This document shows, in pieces, positions 47,826 to 50,585 of a stretch of DNA of 64,000 nucleotides. Position 1 is the stretch's first letter, and each line of letters opens with the position of its first letter. The notes below the pieces were generated by a model. The model did not search any database. It was not told where the DNA came from and saw only the letters and a program-made list of their open reading frames with translations. The stretch is from an uncultured Bacteroidales bacterium (lineage in GTDB: Bacteria > Bacteroidota > Bacteroidia > Bacteroidales > JAAYJT01). The position numbers were made by a program, and so were the translations under genes. The stretch spans positions 15,918-79,917 of the forward strand of contig CAYGGZ010000005.1 of the NCBI GenBank assembly GCA_964349765.1. The letters run 5' to 3'.

Positions 47826-48677
47826 ATGGCAAAAAAATTACAACGAATCGCAATCGCCTATGACTTTGATGGAACTTTGGCCCCAGGCAATATGCAGCAG
47901 CATTCTTTTATTCCAAAACTAGGTGTTGATAGCGGTACTTTTTGGAAGGAGGTAAAAGCTATCGCAAAAGAAAACGACATGAATGAGATATTGGCATACA
48001 TGCACCATATGATTAAAAAGGCTGATGAAAAGAATATCCCAATAACTAAAAAAGCTTTTGTTGAACATGGCAAAGGGATGCCTATGTTTCCTGGTGTTGT
48101 CGAATATTTTGAAAAGATTAATGAATATGCCAAATCAAAAGAATTGGTTGTAGAACATTATATTATTTCTTCAGGCCTTCGAGATATTCTGAAAGGAACA
48201 CCAATTCATAAAGAATTTGAAATGGTTTTTGCTTCTGCTTATAAGTATAACGTTAACGATGTTGCAGAATGGCCGGCATTAGCAATTGACTATACTAACA
48301 AAACGCAATTTCTATTCAGGATAAATAAAGGAATTAAAAACGCTTGGGATAATGAAAGCATAAATAAGTTTATGCCAGAAAATGAAAGACCTATGCCATT
48401 TAACCGAATGATTTATTTGGGTGATGGTGAGTCTGATATTCCGGCAATGAAAATGATAAATTTTCAAGGTGGGAAATCTATTGCCGTTTATAATCCTGAT
48501 ACTAAAACAAAAGCTGGTAAAAAAGCTAAAAAGATAACTCAAGAACTTGTTTCACAAGGTAGGGCAAACTACGTAGCTCCTGCAGACTACTCTGAGGGAA
48601 GTTCACTTTATAAAATCATTCAGTTGTGCATAGATTCAATGGCTGCGGAAATTGAATTGCAAAATTTTAAAAAGTAA
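47826..48677 (+). CDS. HAD superfamily phosphatase-like protein
   Basis: HAD motif I IAYDFDGTLAP (DxDxT), motif II ISSG, motif IV YLGDGESDIPAMK; 283 aa. Lies between hsdS and hsdR. Confidence 0.7.
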   Translation: MAKKLQRIAIAYDFDGTLAPGNMQQHSFIPKLGVDSGTFWKEVKAIAKENDMNEILAYMHHMIKKADEKNIPITKKAFVEHGKGMPMFPGVVEYFEKINEYAKSKELVVEHYIISSGLRDILKGTPIHKEFEMVFASAYKYNVNDVAEWPALAIDYTNKTQFLFRINKGIKNAWDNESINKFMPENERPMPFNRMIYLGDGESDIPAMKMINFQGGKSIAVYNPDTKTKAGKKAKKITQELVSQGRANYVAPADYSEGSSLYKIIQLCIDSMAAEIELQNFKK

Positions 48678-48680
48678 CAT

Positions 48681-48920
48681 ATGGCACGCAAAGAAAGACA
48701 TGTAGTTCCCAATTCCGAAAAAGGCGGTTGGGATTCAAAAAGAGAAAATGCAGAAAGGGCTTCCAAGAATTTTGAAACCAAGAAAGAAGCTATGGACTGG
48801 AGTCGTGAAAAAGCAAAACAGGAGAAATCTGAATTGATACCACATGGAAAAGATGGAAAAATTCAGAATCCGAATAGCTATGGTAGTGATCCCAATCCAC
48901 CTAAGGATAAAAACAAATAG
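48681..48920 (+). CDS. DUF2188 domain-containing small protein
   Basis: 79 aa; HVVPNSEKGGWDSKRENAERASKNFETKKEAMDWSRE.AK....ELIPHGKDGKI matches the DUF2188 pattern. Confidence 0.7.
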   Translation: MARKERHVVPNSEKGGWDSKRENAERASKNFETKKEAMDWSREKAKQEKSELIPHGKDGKIQNPNSYGSDPNPPKDKNK

Positions 48921-48923
48921 TTT

Positions 48924-50585
48924 ATGACAATAGCCGAATTAAAACAAATCCTCCAGTCTCTCCGCAATCTCACTGCGGAGAATGAAATAGTAGAGTATAA
49001 AGAGGCAAAAAATGGTTATGATTTCAACAAGCTGGGCAAATATTTTTCAGCCTTAAGCAATGAAGCCAACCTAAAAGGCAAGCCTTATGCCTGGCTGGTG
49101 TTTGGGGTGGAGAATAACAAGCATAAAATTGTGGGAAGTCAATATCGTTTACAGAGAAAAGATTTAGACAGTCTGAAAAGTGAAATAGCCAGTAAAACCA
49201 CCAACCGAATTACGTTTATTGAAATTTATGAACTGAACGAGCCTGAAGGTAGGGTAGTGATGTTTCAGATACCAGCCGCACCTAAGGGATTTCCAATTGC
49301 TTTTGATGGCCATTACTATGGCCGGGACGACGAAGAATTGTCGCCTCTAAACCTTGAAGAAATTGAACGCATACGAGCACAGACTACTACCGAAGACTGG
49401 AGTGCCGAAGTTGCTCCCGATGCCACTATTGAAGATTTGGACGAAGAAGCCATTGCTTTGGCCAGGAAGAATTTCAAAAACAAATTCCCTGAAAAAGCCG
49501 CAGAAGTTGATCAATGGGATGATAAAAGCTTTTTGAACAAAGCCAAAATTACCATCAAGGGAAAAATTACTCGAACAGCTATTATTCTGTTAGGCAAAGA
49601 GGAATCGGAGCATTTTATTAATCCTGCTGAAGCAAAAATAAGATGGTTGTTGAAGGATGCACATGGCAACGATAAAGACTACGCCATTTTCGGTTGCCCG
49701 ATGATATTGGCAGTTGATAAAGTGTATGCAAAAATTCGCAACCTGAAATATCGTTACATCAAAGAAGGAACTCTTTTTCCTGATGAAGTAAATCAATACG
49801 AACCCTATTCCATAAGAGAAGCCCTAAATAACTGCATTGCACACCAGGATTACACCAAGCATGGTCGAATCAATGTAGTAGAAATGGACGACCAGTTGAT
49901 TTTCACGAATCTAGGTGCTTTTATTCCGGGAAGTGTTGAAAAGGTTGTAAAAGACGATGCCCCCGAGGAACATTATCGCAACCGTTTTTTAGCCACAGCC
50001 ATGTTCAACCTTAAAATGGTGGATACGGCCGGAGGTGGTATAAAGAAGATTTTCAATTTTCAGCGGGAGCGTTTCTTCCCAATGCCCGACTATGACCTTT
50101 CGGGCGGAAAAGTAAAAGTGACTATTTCAGGTAAAATACTCGACATTGAATATGCACGGTTATTGGCTCGTAATAGAGATCTGACTTTAGAAGAAATCAT
50201 CATGTTGGATAAGGTTCAGAAAAAGCAGCCACTAACAGAGTTTGAGGAAAAGCACTTAAGGAGCAAAAAGCTGATTGAAGGAAGAAAACCAAACTATTAT
50301 ATCGGAATAAAGGTTGTGTCAAAAACAGGTCAGAAAGCGACATATTCTAAAAACAAGGCTTTTGAAAAGAGCTACTATATGGATTTAATAGAGAAATCAA
50401 TTAAAGAACATAAGAGTTTAGAAAGAAGTGATGTAGATGAATTACTCTGGAAAAAGCTACCGGATTGGATGGATGAGAAACAAAAGAAAAATAAGATAGG
50501 GAATTTACTGTCGGAGTTGAGAATGAAGGATAGGATTGAAAACACAGGAAGCTATAGCAAGCCAAAGTGGTCTCTTAAAAAGTGA
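48924..50585 (+). CDS. AlbA_2 (Schlafen-like, 'divergent AAA') + HATPase_c_4 + C-terminal wHTH-like protein (RecG-like putative regulator)
   Basis: N-terminus ENEIVEYKEAKNGYDFNKLGKYFSALSNEANLKGKPYAWLVFGVEN (AlbA_2). Middle REALNNCIAHQDYTKHGRINVVEMDDQLIFTNLGAF (HATPase_c_4-like). 553 aa. Confidence 0.75.
   Translation: MTIAELKQILQSLRNLTAENEIVEYKEAKNGYDFNKLGKYFSALSNEANLKGKPYAWLVFGVENNKHKIVGSQYRLQRKDLDSLKSEIASKTTNRITFIEIYELNEPEGRVVMFQIPAAPKGFPIAFDGHYYGRDDEELSPLNLEEIERIRAQTTTEDWSAEVAPDATIEDLDEEAIALARKNFKNKFPEKAAEVDQWDDKSFLNKAKITIKGKITRTAIILLGKEESEHFINPAEAKIRWLLKDAHGNDKDYAIFGCPMILAVDKVYAKIRNLKYRYIKEGTLFPDEVNQYEPYSIREALNNCIAHQDYTKHGRINVVEMDDQLIFTNLGAFIPGSVEKVVKDDAPEEHYRNRFLATAMFNLKMVDTAGGGIKKIFNFQRERFFPMPDYDLSGGKVKVTISGKILDIEYARLLARNRDLTLEEIIMLDKVQKKQPLTEFEEKHLRSKKLIEGRKPNYYIGIKVVSKTGQKATYSKNKAFEKSYYMDLIEKSIKEHKSLERSDVDELLWKKLPDWMDEKQKKNKIGNLLSELRMKDRIENTGSYSKPKWSLKK

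Follow-up and report, generated by a model that had tools for sequence, protein, structure and literature searches.

Here, we describe three genes located between hsdS and hsdR of a type I restriction-modification (R-M) operon in an uncultured Bacteroidales bacterium. The whole stretch of DNA that was analysed, 64,000 nucleotides (64 kb) of contig CAYGGZ010000005.1, is referred to as the window, and the three open reading frames (ORFs), of 283, 79 and 553 amino acids, fill its positions 47826-50585, all on the + strand. An earlier reading of the letters alone (the sequence-only reading) had described them as tightly packed and co-oriented, with a HAD, a DUF2188 and an AlbA_2 plus HATPase_c_4 assignment, respectively; our ORF calls, the spacers of 11, 3 and 3 nt around the trio (hsdS ends at 47814) and Pfam all agree with this description. 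Each ORF has many close homologues, and the three are therefore real genes. The same reading had gone further and taken the trio as one candidate defence or abortive-infection module. This did not survive comparison with related loci, in which the genes recombine separately, with breakpoints at the gene junctions, and each is found without the others, i.e., they are three independent cassettes and not one system, to which we assign a probability of about 0.7. The features of the slot are as follows.

46513..47814, + strand: hsdS, full-length specificity subunit (Methylase_S, two stretches; PADLOC Specificity_I 5.2e-76).
47826..48677, + strand: cassette 1, predicted stand-alone C1-cap HAD phosphatase, PADLOC PDC-S34 (7.3e-116; Pfam HAD/Put_Phosphatase, weak yet over the cut-off; borders by blastn).
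48681..48920, + strand: cassette 2, DUF2188 small protein, PADLOC PDC-S16 (6.4e-31; Pfam DUF2188 1.2e-21; phrog_3220 4.2e-21).
48924..50585, + strand: cassette 3, "Schlatpase"-HTH, with a Schlafen/AlbA_2 RNase domain, a GHKL ATPase (PF13749) and a C-terminal helical region (Pfam SLFN_AlbA_2 1.9e-12, HATPase_c_4 1.5e-11).
50586..51018, no strand: intergenic gap before hsdR with a lineage-specific repeat array, non-coding.
51019..54246, + strand: hsdR, type I restriction/translocase subunit (HSDR_N, SWI2_SNF2 1.3e-76, T1R_D3-like; PADLOC REase_I 2.4e-213).

Related loci were collected from four anchors, i.e., the HAD, AlbA_2/GHKL, DUF2188 and HsdR proteins. The HAD anchor gave 80 species-representative genomes, whose ORFs were labelled by phmmer with the proteins of the window. 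A type I R-M operon surrounds the HAD gene in 16 of the 80 loci; these span at least four phyla, and the HAD gene is usually directly 3' of hsdS. DUF2188 was found within 10 kb in three of the 80 (L001, L010, L032) and is missing from 13 of the 16 R-M-embedded loci, an AlbA_2/GHKL gene was found in five (L001, L007, L008, L011, L053), and the full trio is present in L001 only, where the gene order is hsdM, AlbA_2 paralogue, hsdS, HAD, DUF1883-TIR, DUF2188, Fic, hsdR. With the AlbA_2/GHKL protein as the anchor (80 metagenome loci, 67-91% identity), R-M genes are present in 49 loci and DUF2188 in five, and the HAD gene appears once (L097) and is missing from the other 79. The DUF2188 anchor, for which three look-ups led to eight places with three architectures, is always between hsdS and hsdR; its neighbours there are a PycTM protein with an AGS_C-domain nucleotide cyclase, DUF3800, a metallophosphatase or Fic, and in none of the eight places HAD or AlbA_2. 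As for HsdR, a single-protein scan of viral contigs gave no match, and 79 loci were recovered when IMG/VR was scanned with a profile; they are more distant, probably non-Bacteroidota R-M loci and provide a rough base rate only. At least 150 nt separate hsdS from hsdR in 36 of the 66 evaluable loci of this set, and the 39 loci of the same architecture contain HAD twice, DUF2188 four times and AlbA_2/GHKL not at all. In L187 (4937-5785) and L188 (6294-7172), no gene other than HAD separates hsdS from hsdR; its product is 42% identical with the motifs intact, and the gene overlaps the start codon of hsdR by 4 nt.

The borders of the cassettes come from blastn of the window against L001, L003, L081, L092, L097 and L107, in which homology breaks at the junctions 47815/47826, 48677/48681, 48920/48924 and ~50611/51004. 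In L001, the HAD and DUF2188 genes are matched and ~790 nt, a DUF1883-TIR gene, are inserted exactly at their 3-nt junction; there is no nucleotide match to the third gene of the window, and the Schlatpase of this locus is a 25%-identical paralogue sitting between hsdM and hsdS. In L081 and L092, homology picks up at the first codon of the third gene and hsdR is kept, with SMODS-SLATT-Fic (L081) or a metallophosphatase block (L092) in the place of HAD plus DUF2188. In L003, the HAD gene is matched, then the alignment jumps to hsdR, and Fic takes the place of the other two genes. L097 keeps the gene order of the window at ~77-80% nucleotide identity. Since the breakpoints are at gene junctions, the three genes are three cassettes. 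Transfer as one unit thus failed in the comparisons with L001, L003, L081, L092 and L107, which break at each gene junction, and so did co-occurrence in a conserved order in distant genomes, the trio being present in near relatives (L089-L091, L097) and, reordered, in L001. The tight spacing is common to the whole operon and for this reason is not evidence of coupling.

In this Bacteroidota R-M family, the segment between hsdS and hsdR serves as a variable cargo bay. In related loci it contains SMODS-SLATT, PycTM protein plus nucleotide cyclase, TIR, Fic, DUF3800 and metallophosphatase genes, and the first four of these bear out the earlier statement that accessory defence genes reside in this slot. 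Another recurrent occupant of the same slots is a two-gene cassette of a metallophosphatase (~253 amino acids, calcineurin-like) and an unannotated protein of ~300-336 amino acids (L002, L011, L092, L100, L102, L113, L116, L124, L161, L176, L182). It recalls DS-8, DS-9 and Metis, which are validated defence systems with a metallophosphatase, is without their HAD partner in most loci and occurs independently of the HAD gene.

Two of the three genes have been catalogued before. PADLOC candidates of the PDC type, of one or several genes, were picked as phage defence candidates for no other reason than their embedding in BREX, DISARM or type I R-M operons (Payne et al. 2024, 10.1101/2024.01.29.577857), and the window contains full-length, very strong hidden Markov model matches to PDC-S34 (HAD), PDC-S16 (DUF2188) and PDC-S22 (a KilA-N gene, described below), with the same nesting inside a type I R-M operon. 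The statement that no described system fits the trio therefore needs correction for HAD and DUF2188, each a single-gene candidate already. The catalogue lists these candidates separately, whereas in the window three of them and a Schlatpase are found in one operon. For the HAD protein, residues 4-281 align to positions 3-275 of 284 of model PDLC05002, i.e., full length, with its gene on the same strand between hsdS and hsdR. No paper naming PDC-S34 was found in the literature.

The HAD motifs D13-F-D15-G-T17, S115-S116-G117 and G199-D200-G201-E202-S-D204 are invariant in 51 homologues, and D13/D15/T17, S115-S116, K159 (also K168) and G199-D200...D204 are at least 97% conserved in 81 sequences. 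The catalytic motifs, judged complete before, are indeed so, and by its sequence the protein is predicted to be a catalytically intact C1-cap phosphatase. An AlphaFold2 (AF2) model built from the 51 homologues (pLDDT 92, pTM 0.91) has a Rossmannoid core and a helical C1 cap, helices 23-104, placed between strand 6-12 and strand 107-118. Its nearest structural neighbours are nucleotidases: Foldseek against the PDB returns cytosolic 5'-nucleotidase III (cN-III, 2jga) first (2.7e-9, TM score 0.55, 14% identity) and then phosphoserine phosphatases (SerB). All in all, cN-III (NT5C3A/B) and SerB are the best structural matches (E 2.7e-9 to 1e-7, TM 0.5-0.57) and share the HAD core with the helical C1 cap, the best matches being C1-cap enzymes; the identity, however, is only 13-16%, and neither family is matched by sequence. 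No Pfam or PDB sequence match links the protein to the cN-III family, PDB sequence searches with all three proteins of the trio gave no significant match, and a BFVD fold search with the HAD model gave generic weak HAD matches only. The protein is also below the cut-offs of TIGR01488 (HAD-SF-IB; 26.5 bits against 45) and of the MtnX-like family (17.5 against 81.55). As far as sequence methods go, it appears to stand outside any defined family.

The family is distinct and moderately large (566 clusters at 50% identity, E <= 1e-30), and for the HAD gene of the window the closest named relative is in a Saprospiraceae metagenome-assembled genome (MAG), L001, with 96% amino-acid identity. In two members the HAD is joined to a nuclease: in a Kapaibacterium MAG (L019:10001-11743) a HAD with a C-terminal REase-ARP fusion is directly 5' of hsdR inside an R-M operon, and P0375 has an N-terminal HTH-HNH. 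Longer members were also considered as a possible Rosetta-stone link through their C-terminal extensions; this was rejected, the extensions falling into at least three unrelated groups, none like DUF2188 or Schlatpase. No fusion of HAD to either of these two was found among the family members.

What might such an enzyme do? HAD phosphatases that dephosphorylate (deoxy)nucleoside triphosphates, (d)NTPs, have been validated as immune effectors, i.e., Metis/PUA-Cal-HAD/DS-9 (MisA calcineurin-like plus MisB HAD) and CARF-HAD (Chp). MisB of Metis is likewise a C1-cap HAD. In contrast, the HAD of the window is of the PF12710/PF06888 subfamily and not of PF13419 as in Metis/CARF-HAD; it has no CARF or transmembrane region, and the partner of Metis/PUA-Cal-HAD was not found, no Metallophos (PF00149) or PUA match being present in the island ORFs 42780-55373. 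The protein of the window would be an active Mg-dependent phosphomonoesterase on a small molecule, most plausibly a nucleotide because of the C1 cap, the cN-III-like nearest folds and the Metis/PUA-Cal-HAD and CARF-HAD precedents, and it would act alone, not together with its two neighbours.

Whether it takes part in defence is uncertain, and several observations weigh against such a role. HAD orthologues are vertically inherited in housekeeping contexts in Bacteroidales: 26 of the 80 homologues belong to clades in which the HAD phylogeny mirrors housekeeping synteny, i.e., TrkA/TrkH with an unannotated 608-amino-acid protein; aminotransferase/serine dehydratase/OmpH; FtsZ/glycosyltransferase/acyl-CoA synthetase; and CarboxypepD_reg proteins. 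In 13 loci the orthologue is 3' of the unannotated 608-amino-acid protein next to TrkA/TrkH. One member, from a rumen Bacteroidales (L058:10001-12145), is fused to a Mur ligase-family gene, and a gene of similar size, presumed Mur ligase-like, is 3' of the orthologue in L079 and L080. The Mur ligase fusion and the TrkA/TrkH linkage hint at a housekeeping role. For the remaining 38 loci, which belong to no recognised context class, the two neighbours on each side are mostly ordinary, non-defence genes, and the few defence genes beside them are one type III methyltransferase, Cas5/Cas6, CARF and RES-Xre. Furthermore, R-M-embedded and housekeeping HADs can be told apart at two positions only, and conservation reaches 97% or more in both contexts at 73 of the 283 positions, many of these being cap residues. 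Because the conserved residues are near-identical, the R-M-embedded enzyme probably performs the same chemistry as its chromosomal orthologue.

From these observations, the HAD could be a metabolic passenger, an ordinary small-molecule Bacteroidota phosphatase swept into mobile R-M islands without a role in phage defence. The congruent tree and synteny, the single Mur ligase fusion, the non-defence neighbours, the shared conserved residues and the lack of a sensor domain and of a PHROG match in the HAD protein all fit this explanation. It has to be reconciled, however, with the fact that 16 of 80 species, from at least four phyla, have the gene embedded in type I R-M, with its being the sole cargo in L187 and L188, with the REase-ARP and HNH nuclease fusions, with the existence of validated HAD immune effectors and with the rarity of metabolic genes among embedded genes (Payne et al. 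2024, 10.1101/2024.01.29.577857). We regard the passenger explanation as possible, though less likely than not. The more ambitious proposal is that the PDC-S34 HAD is a genuine stand-alone, sensor-less, nucleotide-directed immune phosphohydrolase that strengthens restriction from inside the type I R-M operon, by destroying modified or phage-specific (deoxy)nucleoside mono- or triphosphate ((d)NMP/(d)NTP) pools or by partnering Schlatpase RNases. It is doubtful, in our view. If true, the vertically inherited Bacteroidales orthologues would be the domesticated or ancestral form.

The DUF2188 protein matches PDC-S16 over its full length (model PDLC04941, positions 1-75 of 75) and its gene is embedded in the same way. 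It also matches the phage family phrog_3220, to which no function is assigned. The literature places DUF2188 in operons under CapH/CapP control and, in one Thoeris island, lists it as a "putative effector". Its recurrent neighbours are DUF3800 (L010, L177-L179) and DUF1883-TIR (L001, L107), and the successions DUF2188 then DUF3800, or DUF1883-TIR then DUF2188, are commoner than the pairing with HAD (L010, L172-L175, L177-L179; L001, L107). As a small protein it is promiscuous and turns up again and again in conflict loci; that it is a small adaptor or regulator is our guess.

The third protein had been called functionally uncharacterised, which is out of date. SLFN_AlbA_2 (PF04326, residues 19-141) is followed by the GHKL ATPase (PF13749, residues 315-401), and this combination has been named "Schlatpase" by Kuzmenko et al. 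2026 (10.64898/2026.05.29.728809), who report it in 60,692 prokaryotic proteins, the majority of which end in a short HTH; in type I R-M operons they also saw it stand-alone or as a fusion to HsdS. It corresponds to the "HisKinase-HTH" class of prokaryotic Schlafens (pSlfn), 19.2% of the total (Taboada et al. 2025, 10.1101/2025.07.24.666596), for which a role as 'backup effector' RNase in BREX loci has been proposed. The catalytic motif, defined for the class as Ex4(E/D)xK, is intact as Ex4ExK (E19-NEIV-E24-Y-K26), and this motif, the GHKL N-box (E299/N302-N303) and the glycine box (G370-G372) are invariant in 30 homologues. The C-terminal region has no Pfam HTH match; its helices 422-534 have pLDDT ~70-85 in an AF2 model that was built from these 30 homologues at 84-91% identity and is unusable overall (pLDDT 48). 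PADLOC has no model for Schlatpase, and the protein has a weak match to an Argonaute-associated model only.

Between Flavobacterium, Cytophagales, Chitinophagia, Lentimicrobium and Bacteroidales, the protein keeps 84-91% identity. The R-M genes around it are only ~75-85% identical in nucleotide sequence between loci, and the comparison suggests recent horizontal spread or very strong constraint. It is the most constant hsdR partner in this lineage, with hsdR starting at most 1 kb 3' of it in 31 of 52 evaluable loci (median gap 173 nt), and 12 loci of at least 8 kb have the same architecture without R-M genes nearby. L094 (3383-5137, 10001-11662) and L104 (2643-4397, 10001-11665) each have two divergent paralogues in the same R-M operon, of which the first follows hsdM and the second precedes hsdR.

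In SLFN-pAgo, ATP binding by GHKL leads to tetramerisation, an active Schlafen tRNase and abortive infection (10.64898/2026.05.29.728809). The Schlatpase of the window resembles SLFN-pAgo RzAgo and the HisKinase-HTH class in the two Pfam domains and their order, Ex4ExK, the GHKL N-box and G-box, the C-terminal helical tail and R-M residence; it differs in having no Argonaute, NACHT or Ig-like sensor domain. Its domains and motifs are established, and its activity, its trigger and any link to the R-M complex are our inference: by homology, the ATP-bound GHKL domain would drive oligomerisation of the Schlafen-fold RNase, which most likely cleaves tRNA and arrests growth once infection passes restriction. 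By analogy, it is probably an ATP-gated tRNase back-up effector. The precedent for such a back-up is the anticodon nuclease PrrC of the type I R-M operon EcoprrI, a protein that joins an ABC-type NTPase to an anticodon nuclease domain and whose gene likewise is that of an RNase-type effector nested in such an operon; the window protein, though, is unrelated, and no ORF of the operon matches a PrrC model in PADLOC. Please note that the literature holds, as far as we could find, no experimental test of the stand-alone HisKinase-HTH pSlfn class, which weighs against this assignment.

What still hints at a link between cassettes is the recurrence of HAD next to Schlatpase genes. A Schlatpase is directly 3' of HAD in L007, L008, L011 and L053; HAD, DUF2188 and Schlatpase are in series in the window and L097, and altogether the succession is seen in six of ~21 HAD loci, a total made up of the R-M-embedded ones and two short contigs, L053 and L097. 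The Schlatpases involved share 24-27% or 81% identity with that of the window and represent no fewer than three unrelated subfamilies, and in two cases (L007, L011) the pair is outside the hsdS-hsdR slot. One could thus think of HAD and Schlatpase as a loose functional pair with DUF2188 optional, e.g., a phosphatase that modulates the nucleotide ligand or the ATP supply of a GHKL-gated RNase, and the absence of Schlatpase from the 39 HsdR-anchored IMG/VR loci would fit a specific association. That sample, however, is taxonomically unlike the Bacteroidota loci, HAD accompanies this Schlatpase subfamily in one of 80 loci, 12 of the 16 R-M-embedded HADs are without Schlatpase, and no fusions were found. 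Since few genes are found embedded in R-M and BREX loci as often as Schlatpase-HTH, the two would be expected to meet by chance, and the adjacency may be no more than that. We hold a functional pair to be rather unlikely.

A further question is raised by the position of the Schlatpase gene, i.e., whether its product acts chiefly by binding DNA and regulating hsdR expression, as a restriction control protein and not an RNase effector. Databases annotate such proteins as transcriptional regulator or DNA-binding protein, the gene is directly 5' of hsdR in 60% of the evaluable loci with a non-coding gap between, and the C-terminal helical region and the repeat array in the gap of the window would suit a regulator. 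The gap from the third gene to hsdR is 433 nt, and its conservation in other loci is limited to the last ~45 nt. It contains five exact TTCTCCAAA copies at 50787-50950, with degenerate copies to 51006, where 1.2 would be expected in the whole 64 kb; the array consists of three 32-nt units with two half-sites each, 21 nt apart, just 5' of hsdR. It looks like an operator and is lineage-specific. As a conserved operator for the Schlatpase HTH it was rejected, being missing from 50 other hsdR-upstream regions, and this, the invariant Ex4ExK and ATP-binding motifs, which argue for an enzymatic function, and the 12 loci with the same architecture apart from R-M genes make a mainly regulatory role improbable. 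Two other features of the gap were considered. A 73-amino-acid ORF at 50798-51019, overlapping the repeat array, has no homologues and no family match, and the segment is not conserved; the gap as a miniature inverted-repeat transposable element, with 14-nt inverted repeats at its ends, was rejected since neither the window nor any locus has a second copy.

It is very improbable that HAD, DUF2188 and AlbA_2/GHKL are one dedicated three-component defence or abortive-infection system, as the 3-nt spacers, the shared order in L097 and the identical contigs L089-L091 and the presence of all three genes in L001 might suggest, since this view is already largely refuted by the comparative data set out above (the different order in L001 with its paralogous Schlatpase and its TIR gene between HAD and DUF2188, the rarity of either partner beside the other, HAD as the only cargo in L187 and L188, the operon-wide tight spacing and the lack of fusions joining HAD to partners). 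What the sequence-only reading had itself named as evidence against the module was found in about half: the trio is confined to near relatives and HADs are present in non-defence contexts, and, on the other side, the HADs fall into no defined metabolic equivalog family.

The cargo genes are probably transcribed with the R-M genes; scans for sigma-70 promoters and terminators gave nothing above shuffle expectation and were uninformative on this point.

The R-M island as a whole spans ~42780-55373 in the order half-size hsdS, four-helix-bundle, hsdM, KilA-N, hsdS, HAD, DUF2188, AlbA_2/GHKL, gap, hsdR, second four-helix-bundle, YgjP-like. Its members outside the hsdS-hsdR segment are as follows.

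42780..43346, + strand: half-size HsdS-like gene with one target-recognition domain (Pfam Methylase_S 2.2e-11), 5' edge of the R-M island, upstream of hsdM in most related loci.
43350..43718, + strand: four-helix-bundle protein gene, 23S_rRNA_IVP / TIGR02436 (Pfam 9.9e-29, NCBIfam TIGR02436), missing at the same position in L001 and L092.
43759..45456, + strand: hsdM, type I methyltransferase (N6_Mtase 3.6e-95, HsdM_N; PADLOC MTase_I 5.9e-126).
45479..46342, + strand: KilA-N domain cargo gene, PADLOC candidate PDC-S22 (Pfam KilA-N 2.6e-20; PDC-S22 1.7e-131).
54247..54627, + strand: second four-helix-bundle gene, an insert (TIGR02436 3.6e-31), missing in L001, L081 and L092.
54624..55373, + strand: YgjP-like/SprT-like metallopeptidase gene, conserved 3' island end (precomputed Pfam YgjP-like on an identical contig), 3' of hsdR in almost all related loci.

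The KilA-N gene (45479-46342), on which the earlier note was silent, lies between hsdM and hsdS and brings the embedded cargo genes to four. Its PHROG match is to a family with a transcriptional regulator annotation; the gene is found in L081 and L096 and is missing from L001 and L092. Both four-helix-bundle genes are clean presence/absence differences against L001, L081 and L092, as if self-inserting. The half-size hsdS-like and YgjP-like genes frame this R-M family in nearly every locus, ~37 IMG/VR loci with an HsdR identity of only 34-51% included, and they look like conserved extra components of the family.

The G+C content is 0.35-0.40 in the island against 0.45-0.47 in the flanks, where PNPase, RpoD, ribulose-phosphate epimerase, SpoU methylase and transketolase are encoded, and identical contigs are present in metagenomes (L089-L091). 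The island was probably acquired horizontally from a Bacteroidota (Saprospiraceae-like) genome. A tRNA scan found no integration site, Rfam gave no match in 42000-56000, and a DNA search of plasmid and phage collections returned a sole match of 71 nt in DUF2188.

The locus is an ordinary instance of a known arrangement, i.e., a type I R-M operon with embedded accessory genes whose families were already catalogued or described. We consider it a worked example of a recombination-driven cargo bay with gene-precise cassette borders in the hsdS-hsdR slot, and the lesson is that close packing within such an operon must not be taken for functional coupling. Because the conserved residues are near-identical in both contexts, a substrate found for an R-M-embedded or a housekeeping PDC-S34 member probably applies to both. 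Schlatpase-HTH, as the most constant hsdR partner here, is a good candidate for the PrrC-like back-up role.

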